A stretch of DNA of 64,000 bases from contig JAQUOE010000001.1 of the NCBI GenBank assembly GCA_028717265.1, forward strand, positions 16,963 to 80,962. The letters are read 5' to 3'. Within the stretch, counting starts at the first letter, position 1. Each line of letters starts with the position of its first letter. The DNA is from Actinomycetota bacterium. Its GTDB lineage: Bacteria; Actinomycetota; Humimicrobiia; Humimicrobiales; Humimicrobiaceae. Below are positions 3,291 to 56,476 of the stretch, piece after piece. A program made the translations under genes and the position numbers. The notes beneath the pieces were generated by a model that was not told the DNA's origin, did no database searches, and was given only the letters and a program-made list of their open reading frames with translations.

Positions 3291-4460
3291 TTGAAAAAAT
3301 CAGTAAAAAAAGGATATTTCGGGGAATTCGGAGGCAGTTACGTTCCGGAAATACTGGTCAGTGCATTAAAGGAACTGGAAAAGAATTATTTTAAATATAA
3401 AAGGGATAAGAAATTCAAAGAAGAACTGGCATATTATCTAAAGAATTATGCCGGAAGACCCACTCCTCTATATTATGCTGAAAGACTTTCGAAGAAATTC
3501 GGGAAAGCAAAAATTTATTTAAAAAGAGAAGATCTGTGCCATCTTGGTGCCCACAAAATCAACAATACCATAGGCCAGACTCTTCTTGCACGAAAAATGG
3601 GAAAAAAATTCATAATCGCAGAGACCGGAGCAGGACAGCACGGTGTAGCGACTGCTGCGGCAGCTGCGCTGTTTGATATGAAATGCAAGATTTTTATGGG
3701 AAGCAAGGATATCAGGAGACAGTCTTCCAATGTACACAGGATGAAATTGATGGGGGCAGAAGTGGTAGAAGTTTCATCCGGAAGCAGGACGTTAAAGGAC
3801 GCAGTCAATGAAACTCTGCGGTACTGGGTTTCAAGAGTGGATGACACCTATTACGTTCTGGGCTCCGTGGTGGGTCCACATCCATATCCTGCCATGGTAA
3901 GGGATTTCCAGACGATCATAGGCAAAGAGACAAAAAAACAGATCATGGATATTGAAGGGAGGCTGCCTGATTATATTATCGCCTGTGTCGGGGGCGGCAG
4001 CAATTCCATAGGGATATTTTACCCATTTTTAAAATATGCGGATTCTGTCAGGCTCATAGGGGTAGAAGCCGGAGGAAAGGGTATCAGAAGCAGGAAACAC
4101 GGAGCAACGCTGGGTTTTGGTAAAAAGGGTATATTCCACGGCGCCTTCAGCTATGTACTGCAGGATAATTATGGCCAGATAGAAGAAGCTTACTCAATAT
4201 CGGCGGGGCTTGATTACCCCGGAGTCGGACCTGAACATTCATATTTGAAGGAAAAAGGAATAGTCAAATATGAGTATATTGTTGACAGTGAGGCACTGGA
4301 AGCATTCAGAGTATTATCGGAATACGAGGGTATTATCCCAGCATATGAAAGTTCCCATGCCCTTGCTTATGCAGCTAAGCTCGCGCCGGCACTCGATAAA
4401 AACAAGGTCATTATCGTAAATCTATCCGGTCGCGGAGATAAAGACATCGAAAATAAGTAA
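3291..4460 (+). CDS. trpB: tryptophan synthase beta chain
   Basis: TTG start. Contains the [12 protein letters not shown] lysine motif and GGGSNSIG. 389 aa. Confidence 0.9.
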
Positions 4461-6524: not shown

Positions 6525-6673
6525 CAGATTAATCAGAAATGTTTAAGAGCTATAATTAAATAGTTACGGAAAAGGAGCGATCTGATTAGTTTGAATTTGA
6601 CAGGGAGACTGCTAAAAATTTTAAAATAAAAAATGAAAAAGAGCTATTAGAATTTCTTAAAAGCAGAAATTAG

Positions 6674-6844
6674 TCTTCCATACTGAAGTTAGTTCTTGAT
6701 TCAAATATATATTTTTCCGCTCTTTTATTTGCTGGAATTCCCTATATGCAAAACTCCAAAACGAGTTTTCGAAAGGAGATAAAAAAGCTCTTAAAAATCT
6801 GTTTTCAGCGAATGGCCCATTCGAAACGCTTTCTTCTAAATTAG
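6674..6844 (+). pseudogene. PIN-domain (TIGR00305-like) toxin N-terminal fragment, no start and truncated
   Basis: The frame gives ILKLVLDSNIYFSALLFAGIP, which resembles the M-K-V-V-L-D-T-N-V-L-I-S-A-L-L PIN N-terminus. There is no canonical start, and the ORF stops after about 57 codons, whereas a PIN domain is about 130 aa. Confidence 0.25.
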
Positions 6845-7300
6845 ATCTTGCTTTTTGCGCCGGTTGGATAGATTCGGATGTTTATCATGATATTCGGATC
6901 ATAAAAAACTGAGGAATCATCGTGCCCATTCAATTGAAAATATTTCATCCAATGAAGAAAGAATAAGAAATGAGATTGGAAAATTTTTAGTACCTGAACG
7001 TAAGTTTTATGATCGGGGAAAACAATGGGCGGCTTCTGCTGCTAAAGGTAAGATAATAATTTCAACAGGTAAAAAACCTGAGGATTTAAAAGAAAATTTA
7101 TATACTCCGGGTAGTTTAACATTAGGCATAGCGCTTCCGATAATATTCACAGTTCCGATCAGTAATTTAAAACCCCTCTTCTGTATGAAGAATGATAATA
7201 AGGATAATATCTTTGCAATAGATATTCCTGATTACATGAAAAAACTGATAGAAAAAACATCTGATAAAAGATTGAGATTACTTCTTTATAATAAAAAATA
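6700..7300 (+). pseudogene. HEPN / MtlR-YggD-like protein gene disrupted by frameshifts
   Basis: Frame 1 reads ...LFSANGPFETLSSKLDLAFCAGWIDSDVYHDIRIIKN and then hits a stop at an A6 run (6903-6908). Adding one A continues the reading as ...IRIIKKLRNHRAHSIEN..., an Rx4-6H HEPN motif, with about 130 further codons to the stop at about 7300. There is no canonical start in the upstream frame, and none of this appears in the ORF track. Confidence 0.35.
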
Positions 7301-7560
7301 GTTTAATCGCAAAACGAATAGTATGAAGATTTAAAATTAATATTTATTTATTACTTAAAAACCAATCTTCAGATTAGCTGCATCAAATCCTATAACATAT
7401 ATCCTGAAGACTGAGATATTTTTCTTATGCCAGAGTCAAATCCGAATACATCAGGAATTTTCCTTTAAATATTGTTAATAATAAAAATATGCAATATGGG
7501 TTCAGTGAAAATCCCTTCTGATAAATAATCATCATGCTGATATTTTTTATATAATTAATT

Positions 7561-7610
7561 TCATTTACAATGAAAACATTATATGATATTATTTCATTAT
7601 AAATGAAAAC
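7561..7610 (+). promoter_or_regulatory. 17-nt direct repeat pair, 15 of 17 matching, 15 nt upstream of the AAA ATPase gene
   Basis: TCATTTACAATGAAAAC (7561-7577) and TCATTATAAATGAAAAC (7594-7610) lie in an AT-rich intergenic region just before the start at 7626. Confidence 0.25.
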
Positions 7611-7625
7611 TTTGGAAATAATTGA

Positions 7626-9868: not shown

Positions 9869-9991
9869 TTAAAAAGGTTGTATTGGTCCGTTTTTAAAAA
9901 TTTTAAAGAGATTAGAAAAGTTTGGTTTTTTAAATTTAGGATTTTATATTAAAATAATCACAATTAGAAAAGTGCTCCGGGAGAATAAAAT

Positions 9992-10951
9992 ATTTTAAGA
10001 ATTTTAATAACAGGTATTGCCGGATTTGCCGGCAGACATCTTACCTCTTATCTCGCTGGGAAAGATAATAACAAAATTTTGGGAACAGACCTGACTGTAA
10101 AAAATTTTAATCTGGATGATTCTACCGGCGAAATAGAATTTGAAGAAGCGGATATCACCCATAGAGAGAAAATTTTCAGTATAATCAAGAAATTCAAACC
10201 TGATCAGGTATACCATCTTGCCGCTCAAAGCTCTGTAAGTCATTCCTGGGAAGATCCGGTAGAGACCTTCAGAATCAATGTTTTCGGGGGAATAAATATT
10301 TTAGAGGGCCTAAAGATTTTTTGCCCGGAATGCAGGATTCTTATGGCATGCACTGCCGAAGAATACGGAGAAACAGATATTCCGGATAAGCCGGTAGATG
10401 AACAATTCAGGATCTTTCCCCAGAATCCATATGCCATAAGTAAATCGGCCCTGGATTTTTTATCCTCTGTTTATTATGGTGCATACAAACTTCCGGTCTT
10501 TATAAGCAGGGCATTCAATCATATCGGTCCGGGTCAGTCCGAAAGATTTGTATGTTCGGATTTCGCAAGGCAAATAGCCCTTACGGAAAGCGGCAAACAG
10601 GAACCGGAAATATGGGTCGGGAATATACAATCAGAGAGAGATTTTCTGGATGTAAGGGATGCAGTGAAAGCATACTATTTTATAATAAACAAAGGCCGCC
10701 CGGGCCAGGTTTATAACGTCTGTTCGGGAAGGAAATTGAAGATTTCGGATTTACTTGATATGCTCATATCTTTCAGTAAAAGATCGGACATTAAAGTGAA
10801 GATCGACCGGAAGAAATTAAGGGCAATCGATGTCAAATCGATGTACGGAGATAATAGTAAATTAAAAAACCATACCGGATGGATTCCCGGTTATTCCATC
10901 GAAACATCACTAAAGGATACGCTTGATTACTGGAGAGGAAAAACCGGTTAA
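9992..10951 (+). CDS. NAD-dependent epimerase/dehydratase, GDP-6-deoxy-D-mannose reductase (Rmd)-like, with a probable ATT start
   Basis: The Rossmann motif ILITGIAGFAGRHL is encoded at 9995-10040. That is upstream of the first canonical start, TTG at 10079, where the ORF track begins. There is an in-frame stop at 9986, a GGGAGA Shine-Dalgarno at 9979-9984, and ATT at 9992. Downstream motifs are HLAAQSSVSHSWEDP and YAISK (YxxxK). The resemblance to Rmd/Gmd is from memory. Confidence 0.55.
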   Translation: MLRILITGIAGFAGRHLTSYLAGKDNNKILGTDLTVKNFNLDDSTGEIEFEEADITHREKIFSIIKKFKPDQVYHLAAQSSVSHSWEDPVETFRINVFGGINILEGLKIFCPECRILMACTAEEYGETDIPDKPVDEQFRIFPQNPYAISKSALDFLSSVYYGAYKLPVFISRAFNHIGPGQSERFVCSDFARQIALTESGKQEPEIWVGNIQSERDFLDVRDAVKAYYFIINKGRPGQVYNVCSGRKLKISDLLDMLISFSKRSDIKVKIDRKKLRAIDVKSMYGDNSKLKNHTGWIPGYSIETSLKDTLDYWRGKTG

Positions 10952-23373: not shown

Positions 23374-23405
23374 CTTTAATATGAATAATAAACCTGGAGG
23401 ATTCT

Positions 23406-24510
23406 ATGTTAGAGGATTATGATACGAAATTGGATAAATTACTGAAAAAACTCGTTTTTTTAAGGGACTGTCTTTGAAATAGATAATAAAATAAAGAGTC
23501 TTAAGGACCTTGAGAGCAGGGCTCTATCAGAAAAATTCTGGGAAGATCACGATAAAGCCCAGAAGATAATCCGGGAGATTTCGGAGCTTAAAGAAACAAT
23601 TGCTGATATTAAAAATTTAGAGGAAAAAGTAGAGGATAGCAGATTAGCATTGGAAATACTTAAAAGCGAGGAAGACGGAAGTCTTGAAAAAGAGCTGGCA
23701 GAAAATCTTACCGACATAGAGGGTTCACTTAATGGTCTGGAAGAAAAAGTAATTTTAAGCGGCAAATATGACTCCTATCCTTCGGTAATAAATATTCACC
23801 CCGGAGCGGGCGGGACAGAATCACAGGATTGGGCGGAGATGCTGTTCCGGATGTATACACGCTGGATCGATAAAAGAGGGTTTTCTTATATTGTCAATGA
23901 CTATCAGGCAGGTGAAGAGGCGGGTATAAAGAATATTACTTTTACAGTTACCGGGAGAAATGCATACGGACTTTTAAAATCGGAAAAAGGGATCCATAGA
24001 CTGGTAAGGATCTCACCCTTTGATTCTTCCAAAAGAAGGCATACTTCTTTTGCATCTGTTGACGTGATACCGTTTTTCGATAAAGATATAGATATAAAAA
24101 TTAATAAAGAAGATCTAAAAATCGAGACCTTCAAATCGAGCAGTGCAGGTGGCCAGCATGTAAATGTCACCGATTCAGCAGTGAGGATCACGCATCTTCC
24201 CACCAATATTGTGGTGCAGTGCCAGAATGAAAGATCACAGACGCTGAACAAGCAGACAGCCATACAGATTTTGAAATCAAAGCTTTTCGAGCTGGAGAGG
24301 AAGAAAAATATCGAAGAAATAGATAAAGTAAGAGGAGAAAAAAAAGAAATCGGATGGGGCAATCAAATAAGAAGTTATACTCTTCAACCTTACCAGCTGA
24401 TCAAGGACCACAGAACCGGAATCGAGATAGGAGATGTAGGTTCGGTACTGGATGGTAATATAGATATGCTTATCAGAGGTTTTCTTGAAAAAAAATTATA
24501 CAAAGCGTAA
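23406..24510 (+). CDS. prfB: peptide chain release factor 2, needing a programmed +1 frameshift at CTT TGA (23472-23477)
   Basis: Frame 0 reads MLEDYDTKLDKLLKKLVFLRDCL then TGA. The +1 frame continues as EIDNKIKSLKDLE... and carries the SPF and GGQ motifs. AAGGGA lies 5 nt upstream of the slip site. Confidence 0.85.
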
Positions 24511-29196: not shown

Positions 29197-29549
29197 GGGG
29201 GCGACCTGGATTCGACGGGGACAGGTTGAGCTTAAATTGCAAGCCGAGTATCAGAACTCGTAAATAACTGAAAATAAACATAAAAGCTAATAATAATAAA
29301 TTAGCATTAGCAGCCTAATTTAAGCTGCTACGTCTGTGAAAGGTTTCCTGCGCTTTTCAACAGGCGCCGGTTAGCAGGATACTCCGGTATGATATGTCTG
29401 CGGTAGTACCGGAGGAAATTTAAAGCGGGCTGGCTTTTTTGATCGTGTCCATGCGAGCAAAAAAGTGAGACTTAAAATGTGGAATAAGCTTGTAGGCGTT
29501 TAAGTGTCAATGTCTTCGGACGCGGGTTCGATTCCCGCCGCCTCCACCA
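29197..29549 (+). ncRNA. ssrA: tmRNA (SsrA)
   Basis: It lies directly downstream of smpB. The 5' GGGGGCGACCTGGATTCGACGGGG pairs with the 3' ...GGACGCGGGTTCGATTCCCGCCGCCTCCACCA, giving a tRNA-Ala-like acceptor, T-arm and CCA. The internal tag ORF is GCT AAT AAT AAT AAA TTA GCA TTA GCA GCC TAA, encoding ANNNKLALAA. Confidence 0.85.
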
Positions 29550-34132: not shown

Positions 34133-34211
34133 CGGGGTGTAGCGCAGTTTGGTTTAGCGCACCTGCTTTGGGAGCAGGGGGTCGGAGGTTCAAATCCTCT
34201 CACCCCGACCA
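34133..34211 (+). tRNA. tRNA-Pro (anticodon TGG), CCA encoded
   Basis: Cloverleaf with acceptor CGGGGTG/CACCCCG, anticodon loop TTTGGGA and T-loop TTCAAAT. Confidence 0.85.
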
Positions 34212-34217
34212 TTTCGG

Positions 34218-34293
34218 GCGGGAATAGCTCAGTTGGCTAGAGCGTCAGCCTTCCAAGCTGAAGGTCGCGGGTTCGAGGCCCGTTTCCCGCTCC
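34218..34293 (+). tRNA. tRNA-Gly (anticodon TCC), CCA encoded
   Basis: Acceptor GCGGGAA/TTCCCGC, anticodon loop CTTCCAA, T-loop TTCGAGG. Confidence 0.85.
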
Positions 34294-34334
34294 ATTTTTT
34301 AGTAATGAATTTTAATTTGTTATAATATTTGCGT

Positions 34335-34411
34335 GCGCCAGTAGCTCAGCTGGATAGAGCAACGGATTTCTAATCCGTGGGTCGGGGGTTCAAATCCCTC
34401 CTGGCGTACCA
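34335..34411 (+). tRNA. tRNA-Arg (anticodon TCT), CCA encoded
   Basis: Acceptor GCGCCAG/CTGGCGT with G1-U72, anticodon stem ACGGA/TCCGT, loop TTTCTAA. Confidence 0.85.
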
Positions 34412-34419
34412 GAAATTTG

Positions 34420-34478
34420 GGTATCGCATTATAAATTCAGGTAGCGTACCATAAAGTTGGTATTGGCTGTATAATTTT
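34420..34478 (+). repeat. three tandem imperfect ~19-20-nt repeats in the tRNA-Arg/tRNA-His spacer
   Basis: GGTATCGCATTATAAATTC, GGTAGCGTACCATAAAGTT and GGTATTGGCTGTATAATTTT share the GGTA...C...ATAAA pattern. Confidence 0.35.
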
Positions 34479-34490
34479 AATTAAACATAT

Positions 34491-34567
34491 GGTGAGAATA
34501 GCTCAGCTGGGAGAGCACAGGATTGTGGATCCTGGGGTCGCGGGTTCGATCCCCGTTTCTCACCCCA
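34491..34567 (+). tRNA. tRNA-His (anticodon GTG) with encoded G-1, CCA encoded
   Basis: An extra 5' G precedes the GTGAGAA/TTCTCAC acceptor, and the discriminator is C. Anticodon loop TTGTGGA. Confidence 0.85.
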
Positions 34568-34580
34568 TTTTTTAAACCTT

Positions 34581-34657
34581 GCGCCTGTAGCTCAGTTGGA
34601 TAGAGCGTCGGACTTCGAATCCGTGCGTCGGGGGTTCGAATCCCTCCAGGCGTACCA
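34581..34657 (+). tRNA. tRNA-Arg (anticodon TCG), CCA encoded
   Basis: Acceptor GCGCCTG/CAGGCGT, anticodon loop CTTCGAA. Confidence 0.8.
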
Positions 34658-34666
34658 TATTTAAAT

Positions 34667-34742
34667 GGGCCGTTAGCTCAGCTGGTAGAGCACCTGACTC
34701 TTAATCAGGGTGTCACAGGTTCGATCCCTGTACGGCTCACCA
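34667..34742 (+). tRNA. tRNA-Lys (anticodon CTT), CCA encoded
   Basis: Acceptor GGGCCGT/ACGGCTC, anticodon stem CCTGA/TCAGG, loop CTCTTAA. Confidence 0.85.
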
Positions 34743-34747
34743 TCTCT

Positions 34748-34834
34748 GCGAGAGTGGCGGAACTGGCAGACGCGCTAGACTTAGGATCTAGTGGGGTAAC
34801 ACCTATAGGGGTTCAAGTCCCCTCTCTCGCACCA
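34748..34834 (+). tRNA. tRNA-Leu (anticodon TAG), long variable arm, CCA encoded
   Basis: Acceptor GCGAGAG/CTCTCGC, anticodon loop CTTAGGA, extra arm TGGGGTAACACCTATA. 87 nt. Confidence 0.85.
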
Positions 34835-44744: not shown

Positions 44745-45212
44745 ATGAGCGGATGCGGGAATTCTGGAAAAAGTGACATCCGGGGTGAAATCGATAATAA
44801 TATCGAAAAAAGCCTTGTCGTAGTCAAACCGGATGGAGTGAGGAAAAAAGTAATCGGAGAGATCATATCCCGTTTTGAAAAAGAGGATCTTAACATTGAA
44901 AAGTTAAAAATGTTAAGAATTAGCAGGGAACTTGCACACAGGCATTACCAGGATCATAAAGATAAAAGTTTTTTTGATATATTGATAGAGTATATAACGT
45001 CGGGTCCCGTAGTAGCAATGGTAATAAGCGGTGAAAACGCAATTGCCAGAGTAAGGGGACTTATTGGACCGACTGATCCCAGAAAGGCGGAAAGAGGGAC
45101 CATCAGAGGTGATTTTGGCGATGATATTACTGTAAATGTAATTCATGGTTCGGATTCCATGGAAAATGCGCGGAGAGAAATAGAATTATTTTTTGGTCAG
45201 AGTAAATGGTAA
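44745..45212 (+). CDS. ndk: nucleoside diphosphate kinase
   Basis: Contains KSLVVVKPDGV and the active-site NVIHGSDS with His. The only in-frame start, ATG at 44745, gives an 18-aa N-terminal extension. Confidence 0.85.
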   Translation: MSGCGNSGKSDIRGEIDNNIEKSLVVVKPDGVRKKVIGEIISRFEKEDLNIEKLKMLRISRELAHRHYQDHKDKSFFDILIEYITSGPVVAMVISGENAIARVRGLIGPTDPRKAERGTIRGDFGDDITVNVIHGSDSMENARREIELFFGQSKW

Positions 45213-54059: not shown

Positions 54060-54090
54060 ATTCTTAGAGTAAAGGAGATCTGAGATTAAA

Positions 54091-55764
54091 TTGGATAAAG
54101 AAATGTTAGTAAGTTCGGATAAAAATGAAACCCGGATTGCTATTTTAGAATCAAAAAAGGTTACCCAGCTTTTTTTTGACCGCAAGAATAAAAAATCTCT
54201 TGTTGGAAACATATATATGGGCAGGGTTAAAAATATTCTTCCGGGACTGGATGCGGCTTTCGTTGATATAGAAGAGGATAAAAATGCTTTCCTGTATATC
54301 AATGAAGTCGGTCCGGATATGGATGATGAAAATGCTGCGGAGATACCAAAGAAAATACAATATGTTCTTAAGCCAAATCAAATAGTATTGGTCCAGGTAA
54401 CCAAGGATCCCATGAAGACAAAGGGTGCCAGGATAACTACTTATATATCTATTCCTGGCAGATATCTTGTCCTGGCACCCTTTAATAAGGGCATTGGAAT
54501 CTCCAGGAAAGTCTACGGAGAAGAAAGAGAGAATTTAAAAAAGATTGCAGCAGAAATAAAAAGTGAAGATTACGGATTAATTGTCAGGACCGCGGCCAGG
54601 GAAGCAGATAAAAACAAACTAAAAAAAGATTTAAAGCAGCTTTTAAAAAAATGGAATTTTATAAAGAAAAAAGCTTCTGCTTTAAATAAGCCCGGTATCG
54701 TTTTTAATGAATATTCAGTGATTTTAAAGTTGATGAGAGATGTATTTTCTGAGGAGTTTAGCACCATACATGTAGATAAGAAAGTGCTTAAAAGAGAAAT
54801 TGGCCGGTACCTGTACTCTGTCGGGATCAAATTCAACAATATAATAGTCCATCATGGGAAAGAAGATTTGTTTGAAGCCTTTAATGTCAACGAGGTTATA
54901 GAAGGTGCCCTCGAAAGGAAAGTCTGGCTAAAATCCGGAGGATTCATAGTAATAGATCATGGAGAGGCAATGACCACAATAGATGTCAATACCGGTAAAT
55001 ATACTTCAAATAAAAGTTCATCCCAGACCATACTGAGAACGAACCTGGAAGCAGCGGAAACAATTACCAATCAATTAAGGCTGCGGGATATCGGTGGTAT
55101 CATAGTGATAGATTTTATCGATATGGCCAGTGAGAAAGACAGAAAGAAGGTTTATAGCAGATTTTTACAGTGCCTTGAAAATGACAGGACCAAAACTGAA
55201 ATACTTCAATTTTCAAAATTGGGTCTGCTGGAAATGACAAGAAAAAATGTCTCGGACGGGATCCTTGACACGATGTGTAAAATCTGTCCCTGCTGCGGCG
55301 GTTCCGGCCATATAAAATCTGAGGAAACAATAAGACTTGAAACGGAGAGAAAGATCAGAAGACTTGCAAGAGAAAGCAAGTCAAAAGGTTTCTTAATAAA
55401 ATTGAATACAAATATAGCGGCGCTTGTAATCGGTACAGACGGCAGAAATTTAAAACATCTTGAGAACATAACAAAAAAATATATCAATATTCAGGGCGAT
55501 TCAAAATTACCGGTCGATACTTTTATAATATCAGCAGAGGGTTCGATTGCTGAAATAAAAGAAGCTTCCAAACCATTTAAAACCGGTGATATTCTTGATT
55601 TACTGGCAGAAGAACAGTATTTTCATAATAAAAATGATGCTATATCAAGAGTTGACGGATATATTGTGCAGATAATCGATGGAGGAAAATATATTGGCCA
55701 GAGACTCAGGGTAGAGATTAAGTCCGTATCCAAGACCAGTGCAGTAGCGGAAATCAGGAATTAA
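54091..55764 (+). CDS. rng: ribonuclease G/E family endoribonuclease
   Basis: Has an S1 domain (GNIYMGRVKNILPGLDAAFVDI), the catalytic region and a Zn-link CPCCGGSG. 557 aa. The start is TTG at 54091 or ATG at 54103. Confidence 0.8.
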   Translation: MDKEMLVSSDKNETRIAILESKKVTQLFFDRKNKKSLVGNIYMGRVKNILPGLDAAFVDIEEDKNAFLYINEVGPDMDDENAAEIPKKIQYVLKPNQIVLVQVTKDPMKTKGARITTYISIPGRYLVLAPFNKGIGISRKVYGEERENLKKIAAEIKSEDYGLIVRTAAREADKNKLKKDLKQLLKKWNFIKKKASALNKPGIVFNEYSVILKLMRDVFSEEFSTIHVDKKVLKREIGRYLYSVGIKFNNIIVHHGKEDLFEAFNVNEVIEGALERKVWLKSGGFIVIDHGEAMTTIDVNTGKYTSNKSSSQTILRTNLEAAETITNQLRLRDIGGIIVIDFIDMASEKDRKKVYSRFLQCLENDRTKTEILQFSKLGLLEMTRKNVSDGILDTMCKICPCCGGSGHIKSEETIRLETERKIRRLARESKSKGFLIKLNTNIAALVIGTDGRNLKHLENITKKYINIQGDSKLPVDTFIISAEGSIAEIKEASKPFKTGDILDLLAEEQYFHNKNDAISRVDGYIVQIIDGGKYIGQRLRVEIKSVSKTSAVAEIRN

Positions 55765-55825
55765 TATTCGAACTTCTTAATAAGAATAATTTATCGGAAG
55801 ATGTATTTACAGGAGATGTTTTAAA

Positions 55826-55861
55826 TTGACAGAGCAGCAATATATATGATAGTATGTCACT
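55826..55861 (+). promoter_or_regulatory. sigma-70-like promoter candidate for rplU-rpmA
   Basis: The -35 TTGACA (55826-55831), an 18-nt spacer and an extended -10 TGaTAGTAT (55847-55855) lie about 40 nt before the rplU start. Confidence 0.4.
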
Positions 55862-55894
55862 CTGTAATTTGAAGAGAAAACAGGGAGGAATAAA

Positions 55895-56212
55895 ATTTAC
55901 GCAATAATCACAAGCGGCGGAAAACAATATAAGGTAGAAGAAAATAAAGATATAGTAGTGGAAAGAATCGAGGGTAAAGAGGGTGATAAAATCACACTTT
56001 CGGAAGTCAACTTTATCAGTGATGGTGATAATATAGAAATAGGCAATCCTTTGATTTCCAAAGCTGCGGTAAATGCTACTATAAAGAAACAAATAAAAGG
56101 GGATAAAGTAATTGCATTCAAGTATAAACCCAAGAAAAGATACAGAAGAAAAGTGGGGCACAGGCAATTGCTTACAATATTACATTTGGACAGGATAAGC
56201 CTGAAGGGATAA
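55895..56212 (+). CDS. rplU: 50S ribosomal protein L21, with a probable ATT start
   Basis: The conserved N-terminus YAIITSGGKQYKVEENKDIVV is encoded upstream of the first canonical start, the GTG at about 55958 where the ORF track begins. An in-frame stop lies at about 55864, AGGGAGG lies 6 nt before the ATT, and the 3' end is ...HRQLLTILHLDRISLKG. Coordinates are +/- 1 nt (see rejected note). Confidence 0.8.
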   Translation: MYAIITSGGKQYKVEENKDIVVERIEGKEGDKITLSEVNFISDGDNIEIGNPLISKAAVNATIKKQIKGDKVIAFKYKPKKRYRRKVGHRQLLTILHLDRISLKG

Positions 56213-56224
56213 AAGGAGGAAGGT

Positions 56225-56476
56225 ATGTCCAGTAAAAAAGGTGTGGGAAGCAGTAGAAACGGCAGAGACAGCAACCCAAAATTTTTAGGATTAAAAAAAT
56301 CCGGAGGCCAGATGGTGACTGCCGGAAATATTATTTTAAGGCAGAGAGGAACCAGGTTCAGACCGGGTATCAATGCAGGTGTGGGCCGGGATCATACTAT
56401 TTTTGCAAAAGCCGATGGTAAAGTAGAATTTATAAAACACAGTAAAAAAGGTAAAGTAGTAAATATCATTTCTTAA
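56225..56476 (+). CDS. rpmA: 50S ribosomal protein L27, with no N-terminal propeptide
   Basis: Starts [16 protein letters not shown]...[11 protein letters not shown]. 83 aa. Confidence 0.9.

Follow-up and report, generated by a model that had tools for sequence, protein, structure and literature searches.

Roughly two genes of Escherichia coli, infC and pcnB, have an ATT start among about 4,300. Initiator tRNA can decode AUU, and the proofreading by initiation factor 3 (IF3) that disfavours this codon is the basis of the autoregulation of infC, which encodes IF3 and whose AUU or AUA start is conserved in E. coli and many other bacteria. Here we describe a start of this kind on rplU, the gene for ribosomal protein L21 (bL21), in a stretch of 64,000 nucleotides from an uncultured Actinomycetota bacterium of the Humimicrobiaceae (GenBank assembly GCA_028717265.1, contig JAQUOE010000001.1, positions 16,963 to 80,962 of the forward strand). 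This whole stretch is referred to as the window, and all positions are counted from its first nucleotide. The best explanation overall of the comparisons reported below, and one in which we have high confidence, is that translation of rplU begins on the AUU at 55895-97. As in the case of infC, this would place a conserved non-canonical start on a well-expressed gene of the translation machinery, but the control of infC is autogenous, whereas any feedback on rplU would be indirect and run through the levels of IF3 or of guanosine tetraphosphate (ppGpp); we know of no role of L21 in the proofreading of start codons.

Non-canonical starts on other genes provide further points of comparison. In Deinococcus, rpsL, the gene for ribosomal protein S12, starts with CTG and dnaA starts with ATC (Baudet et al. 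2009, PMC2830850). The start of Deinococcus rpsL resembles that of rplU in being a lineage-conserved non-canonical start of a universal ribosomal protein that was mis-annotated as extended or truncated and that was recognised by alignment of orthologues; it differs in the codon, CTG, in the protein, S12, and in belonging to another phylum, and it has been proven at the peptide level, whereas the evidence for rplU is wholly comparative. Taken together, the AUU of rplU and the CTG of Deinococcus rpsL suggest that the choice of start codon regulates ribosome synthesis in some lineages. A different use of weak starts is seen in pcnB (AUU) of E. coli and ebpA (ATT) of Enterococcus faecalis (PMC4447247), where the start holds down the expression of a specific gene. 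The products of pcnB and ebpA are low-abundance or accessory, whereas L21 is stoichiometric and needed in large amounts, and a strictly conserved AUU on a stoichiometric ribosomal protein is unusual. Start-codon changes have also been described in the rsb genes of Listeria (PMC13068326). Finally, the L21 leader of Firmicutes (RF00559) is a cis element in the 5' region of rplU that is presumed to control the same operon; it is absent from the window, the clade having a short leader and an AUU instead, and many of the Firmicute outgroup loci carry a GGCGAGTCT-type leader sequence together with ATG. A literature search for an ATT start of rplU or L21, or for translation in Humimicrobiia, retrieved no specific paper; the kind of exception is already known, and for rplU as its carrier we found no published report.

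The rplU coding sequence extends over 55895..56212 (+) and specifies a bL21 of 105 aa, with a TAA stop codon at 56210-12. An in-frame TAA at 55865-67, 10 codons 5' of the ATT, closes the reading frame upstream, and the codons that follow it are TTT GAA GAG AAA ACA GGG AGG AAT AAA ATT TAC GCA ATA ATC ACA AGC GGC GGA AAA, which read ..K-I-Y-A-I-I-T-S-G-G-K around the ATT. No ATG, GTG or TTG is present in this frame between the TAA and the GTG at 55958..55960 (+), which is the first in-frame canonical codon, corresponds to codon 22 and, as a false start, gives rise to the truncated gene models of 84 aa; no Shine-Dalgarno sequence precedes it and its position is not conserved. A Shine-Dalgarno sequence, AGGGAGG (55882..55888, +), is followed by the 6-nt spacer AATAAA and the ATT initiation codon (55895..55897, +), which occupies the Met1 position of bL21. 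The original prediction had claimed that the conserved N-terminus of L21 lies upstream of the first canonical start and that ATT is the codon behind AGGGAGG, and both claims held on alignment. Indeed, the window L21 matches TIGR00061 with 109.1 bits (cut-off 43.7), residues 2-101 falling on positions 1-100 of the 101 positions of the model, and PF00829 is recorded on all L21 homologues. In alignments with solved bL21 chains (4wce_O, 3j3v_R and others), its residues 1-102 correspond to residues 1-101 of the chain, and the chains that align residue 1 to residue 1 include those of S. aureus, B. subtilis, E. coli and T. thermophilus, among others. The motif GGAGG-N4-8-ATT is not enriched in the window, with 16 matches where 19.4 would be expected, so that the motif alone proves nothing and the evidence is homology together with conservation in relatives; for the same reason, a genome scan for ATT starts needs a homology criterion.

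In order to follow the start codon through the lineage, 22 relatives were collected, comprising seven GTDB species representatives (L001-L007), five metagenome contigs (L081-L085) and ten loci from exact-protein look-ups (L161-L170). With the window they give 23 rplU sequences, all distinct, from assemblies that are independent of one another (NCBI, JGI, ENA, Logan), with 65-96% protein identity. A search of a protein collection with the same L21 returned about 100 cluster representatives of the clade at 62-98% identity. The clade clusters bear the names Actinomycetota or Ca. Humimicrobiaceae wherever the source names them, the 90% cluster of MDD5621599.1, the NCBI record of the window protein, includes members named Ca. 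Humimicrobiaceae bacterium, and NCBI taxonomy places Ca. Humimicrobiaceae within the class Ca. Humimicrobiia. As an outgroup we used L21 of at most 56% identity, for which all 73 genome loci and, from metagenomes, only the 13 most similar loci were read. Changes were counted by parsimony on a neighbour-joining tree built from rplU minus its first codon.

The comparison with close relatives, which the original prediction had proposed as a check, gave ATT at the Met1 position in 21 of the 22 relatives and ATA in the remaining one (L006), and never ATG, GTG or TTG; including the window, ATT is found in 22 of 23 sequences. A Shine-Dalgarno core of the GGAGG type with a spacer of 5-7 nt is present in nearly all 23 of them, and in 14 of the 23 loci the frame contains no canonical start from the upstream stop to the ATT. 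The first canonical codon downstream varies among the relatives, being codon 20, 21, 22, 33, 40, 46 or 59, and in L007, L167 and L168 it is absent or too near the 3' end for a functional L21. Since this codon shifts from one relative to another, the internal GTG is not a conserved start. Outside the clade, ATG is the usual start of L21 among the outgroup loci read, with few GTG or TTG, and in the few apparent exceptions a canonical codon lies one or two codons further 5'. Judged by these comparisons, AUU 55895 is the only start that fits the sequence, the homology and the conservation.

The ATT is retained in a gene whose synonymous sites are near saturation, with a mean pairwise third-position identity of 0.46 across the 23 rplU sequences; over codons 2-21 the protein is conserved while the synonymous sites vary. 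The third position of the start codon has undergone a single parsimony change, from T to A in L006, whereas the third positions of codons 2-100 average 6.1; no more than 3 of those 99 positions equal it in conservation, which places it among the most conserved 4%. Elsewhere in the rplU genes of the clade, isoleucine is encoded by ATA (56%), ATT (33%) and ATC (11%). ATA is thus the commonest isoleucine codon and yet rare at codon 1, which points to selection for AUU specifically. The conservation extends beyond the start codon, as codon 2 is TAC in all 23 sequences, never TAT, and codon 4 hardly varies at its third position; it appears that coding alone does not account for the constraint on the start context AUU-UAC-GCN-AUA. 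The neighbouring genes also keep their start codons, with ATG for rpmA (23/23), ATG for the DUF2344 gene (8/8), TTG for RNase G (11/13) and ATG for obg (7/7). These comparisons show that the ATT of rplU is kept by purifying selection throughout a clade of Ca. Humimicrobiaceae-like Actinomycetota, and that it is neither an ordinary isoleucine codon nor a drifting site.

Three explanations under which rplU would not start at AUU were weighed against these data. A sequencing or assembly error that conceals a true ATG has next to no probability in our judgement, as what favours it is the rarity of ATT starts in general and nothing more, whereas the 22 independent assemblies of the relatives read ATT or ATA while differing at many nearby synonymous sites, and the ATT of a GDP-sugar reductase/epimerase gene of the window, described below, shows the same kind of conservation. 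The systematic error that the original prediction had kept as an alternative is thereby excluded. It is very improbable that L21 is truncated and starts at GTG 55958, as Prodigal-type callers predict. Truncated models of 84 aa do exist in the protein collection (P0021, P0241), but codons 2-21, conserved as protein over varying synonymous sites, are hence translated, and in solved ribosome structures residues 2-21 make up the N-terminal portion of the bL21 fold; moreover, the GTG lacks a Shine-Dalgarno sequence, and the first downstream canonical codon moves among the relatives, the three loci named above having no usable one. Loss of the first ~21 residues of L21 in this lineage, named in the original prediction as the finding that would count against it, is thus excluded by the conserved codons 2-21 and the variable downstream starts. 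We give an equally small chance to an upstream start, whether at a canonical codon that would lengthen the N-terminus or by recoding, such as a frameshift out of a small open reading frame (ORF) lying upstream, which would make the ATT an ordinary isoleucine codon. Extended models of 108-128 aa are present in relatives and the same window contains a true +1 frameshift gene, prfB; however, in the window the frame is closed by the TAA at 55865-67, after which there is no start codon, the extensions are unrelated in sequence and length, many having their first codon within the conserved promoter or 5' of it, and an ordinary isoleucine codon would vary among ATA, ATT and ATC in the way that codons 5, 20, 25 and 49 do. 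Neither a conserved upstream ORF nor a slippery site for a frameshift of the prfB type into rplU was found among the clade loci, and the sequences upstream of rplU are unrelated among the relatives except for the promoter and a TGTAATT motif.

In the mechanism that we propose, a consensus-like promoter (TTGACA, 18 nt, TGaTAGTAT) would yield an mRNA with a short leader, in which AGGGAGG and the A-rich spacer of 6 nt would set the P site of the 30S subunit on AUU. The initiator fMet-tRNA would decode AUU despite a third-base mismatch, so that the protein would consist of Met followed by YAIITSGG, and L27 would be made from its own Shine-Dalgarno sequence and ATG 12 nt downstream. The strong Shine-Dalgarno sequence and promoter would make up for the low basal efficiency of AUU, and initiation on AUU by initiator tRNA, driven by the strong Shine-Dalgarno sequence, is the most likely route. 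The AUU could then act as a built-in throttle or sensor, through which the synthesis of L21 would follow the condition of the initiation machinery (IF3, ppGpp). AUU belongs to the class of codons against which IF3 discriminates (PMC5499595, PMC2830850), and in vitro mRNAs with an AUU start are weak competitors at low temperature, when nutrients are limiting and in the presence of ppGpp (PMC5499595). As IF3 disfavours AUU and AUU-led mRNAs compete poorly under stress, we infer that the AUU would most likely be kept as an IF3- or ppGpp-sensitive throttle on L21. The full proposal, that AUU is a selected start in the clade, that rplU and with it the production of 50S subunits are under control of the infC type, and that the lineage is tolerant enough of such starts to rescue genes whose start was lost, is put forward tentatively and is less likely than not. 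If it is true, L21 synthesis responds to IF3 availability, temperature or ppGpp, a nearby ATT readily takes over in genes whose canonical start is lost, as in the reductase, and Prodigal-type calls are systematically wrong for a fraction of the genes in the class.

The main rival to the throttle is a tolerated weak start without regulatory role, fixed once in the ancestor of the clade by AT-biased mutation or drift; a strong Shine-Dalgarno sequence and promoter would make the ATT harmless, and back-mutation to ATG would be rare and of little benefit. We regard this as possible, although on the unlikely side. It is consistent with the AT-rich composition of the window (38.6% GC), with the frequency of TTG starts (about one in five of its genes), with the ATA of L006, with a reductase that recently lost its TTG and survives, and with a Shine-Dalgarno sequence of rplU that exceeds most others of the window in strength. 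Drift, however, should give plenty of ATA, the codon used for 56% of isoleucines, and what is seen is a ratio of 22 ATT to 1 ATA at a third position among the most conserved 4%; ATG is never seen, though other third positions average 6 changes, and each neighbouring gene keeps its characteristic start, a sign that the strength of initiation is under selection. The surplus of ATT over ATA, together with start codons that are stable gene by gene, thus argues against a merely tolerated ATT. Several points, on the other side, weigh against a selected and regulatory AUU. The ATA of L006 means that AUU is not absolutely required, and a T-to-G change runs against AT-biased mutation, so that the absence of ATG is weaker evidence of selection. 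The 23 clade sequences are related and the counts are not independent events, an effect that the tree-based count lessens but does not remove, and the regulatory purpose, whether IF3 or ppGpp sensing, is purely what we infer.

The putative rplU-rpmA promoter was located by a consensus scan. Its -35 hexamer, TTGACA (55826..55831, +), is present as TTGACA or a one-off variant in 22/22 relatives, and after a spacer of 18 nt it is followed by an extended -10 element, TGaTAGTAT (55847..55855, +), of which the relatives share TG-n-TAnnAT. This promoter implies a 5' untranslated region of about 33 nt in the window, and the predicted leaders range from 30 to 78 nt across the relatives. At the predicted transcript start lies the TGTAATT motif (55863..55869, +), which contains the TAA at 55865-67; its clade consensus, CAnTnTGTRATTT, sits directly after the -10 box, at 55856-55872 in the window and at the matching place in each of the 22 relatives. 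Pairing of TGTAATT with codons 4-6 (AATTACA) was considered and rejected; 6-7 of 7 pairs can mostly form, and the changes give a mismatch or a G-U pair, none being compensatory. An extra hairpin lies just before the Shine-Dalgarno sequence in L005, L084 and L085, and its stem shows compensatory changes (CTAAAAG/CTTTTAG vs CTCAAG/CTTGAG). No Rfam leader, including the L21 leader RF00559, was found at the gathering threshold in the window or at E<=10 in 55760-56000.

Downstream of rplU, rpmA (bL27; 56225..56476, +; TIGR00062, 111 bits) has an ATG start and its own Shine-Dalgarno sequence, AAGGAGG, within the 12-nt gap between the genes. This rplU-rpmA arrangement is common to all 22 relatives, with gaps of 3-97 nt. 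No ysxB/Prp protease gene is present between rplU and rpmA (56213-56476), and L27 starts with MSSKKG, without an N-terminal extension of the Firmicute type. The genes are ordered as a radical-SAM protein, DUF2344, RNase G/E (54091-55764), rplU and rpmA, and then onward toward obg; after rpmA come two chromate-transporter genes on the opposite strand, two zinc dehydrogenases, obg, proB and proA.

NCBI MDD5621599.1 is identical to the 105-aa L21 of the window and has an M start, so the ATT start is already in GenBank through automatic annotation. The mechanism is not new either, as AUU initiation and its sensitivity to IF3 belong to textbook knowledge. Only four models begin with MYA, all of them NCBI records, and in the two whose underlying DNA was checked (P0015 and P0044) the codon is ATT; the MYA records of NCBI thus reflect an ATT start call and not a real ATG. 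Non-NCBI models of the clade (JGI, ENA, Logan) are either extended by unrelated residues to 108-128 aa or truncated to 83-91 aa, and the records of NCBI alone are correct; across clusters P0001-P0095, where truncated forms measure 72-101 aa, the non-NCBI L21 models are nearly all wrong. Ile stands directly before YA(I/V) in 56/56 extended clade models, and the extensions are unrelated to one another in sequence and length. Among the matches listed, 41 of 120 models have no YA N-terminus and are mostly clade models truncated at internal codons. Marker sets for phylogeny or completeness that contain ribosomal proteins inherit these L21 model errors for the metagenome-assembled genomes concerned.

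We also searched the window for further ATT starts, comparing the stop-to-stop translations of every long ORF with Pfam and NCBIfam and looking for a conserved N-terminus upstream of the first canonical start. Three genes showed this pattern, namely rplU, prfB and the reductase. The case of prfB (23396-24510, +) is explained by a programmed +1 frameshift, with a Shine-Dalgarno sequence GGAGG at 23396, an ATG at 23406, 23 codons in frame 0 and the slip site CTT TGA A at 23472-78; AGGG lies 6 nt upstream of the slip site, and the PCRF and RF-1 domains are in the +1 frame. The GDP-sugar reductase/epimerase gene has a probable second ATT start (9979..9994, +), in which GGGAG (9979-83) is followed by the 8-nt spacer AATAAAAT and by ATT (9992-94). 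Its coding sequence would run from the ATT, 9992-10951, within an open frame of 9989-10951. The 5' sequence reads GGGAG-AATAAAAT-ATT TTA AGA ATT TTA ATA ACA GGT, and a TAA precedes the ATT by two codons. The Rossmann motif GIAGFAG is located upstream of TTG 10079 (codon 30), the first canonical codon, and position 1 of the Pfam Epimerase model aligns at residue 5 of the stop-to-stop ORF. Relatives of the reductase at 56-78% identity start with M/L-(R/K)-ILITG, having ATG or TTG where the window has TTA, and the DNA of one of them reads GGGGAG-aatacgctt-TTG AGA ATT. Taken over the window and 7 close relatives of 85-100% aa identity, the old start codon is TTA in 6 and ATA in 2, and the ATT that precedes it is present in 8/8. 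Judging from these alignments, the reductase lost its TTG start recently while its ORF remained intact, and ATT 9992 is the most plausible replacement. The NCBI model MDD5621556.1 (314 aa, MTGIAGFAG) starts at ATA 10007, 23 nt from the Shine-Dalgarno sequence; this start would remove the first beta strand and is probably the wrong codon.

The suggestion in the original prediction that ATT initiation is used repeatedly in this genome is thus supported by two ATT starts, those of rplU and the reductase, among the ~58 genes of the window, a rate far above that of E. coli, albeit in a small sample; infC is not among the genes of the window. The clade seems to be generally tolerant of AUU starts. 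Weak starts also seem to be common in this genome, as about one in five of the window genes apparently start with TTG by the first-canonical-start heuristic (e.g. at 3291, 10984, 19205, 29905, 30869, 31881, 33495, 36893, 38949, 48504 and 54091), and the TTG of RNase G was confirmed in relatives.

Other candidates were set aside. An ATT at 54085, 8 nt after AGGAG, might have served RNase G, but the TTG at 54091 is the codon kept in 11/13, and the ATT is not conserved; one relative has a stop in the frame of that position. ATT 36887 of the trigger factor gene and ATA 38943 of clpX, both raised by a Shine-Dalgarno heuristic, have a TTG with acceptable spacing two codons downstream and no homology argument in their favour. 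The gene for nucleoside diphosphate kinase (NDK; 44745-45212, +) appeared to have a start problem, with the Pfam domain beginning 20 residues after the ATG, but the ATG at 44745 has a good Shine-Dalgarno sequence and the extension is genuine; these 20 N-terminal residues ahead of the NDK domain are MSGCGNSGKSDIRGEIDNNI.

Some other features of the window were recorded. An AT-rich stretch of 1.1 kb (6525-7625; GC down to 25%), with no ORF of at least 50 aa and no Rfam match, lies between the gene for a DUF5050 protein and that for an AAA_14/DUF4143 ATPase. In the relative L178, trpA is followed directly by a glycosyltransferase gene, and the block in the window hence looks like an insertion. 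A transfer-messenger RNA gene (29197-29549, +), with the tag ANNNKLALAA, is located directly after smpB, and seven tRNA genes, for Pro, Gly, Arg, His, Arg, Lys and Leu, are clustered at 34133-34834 (+).

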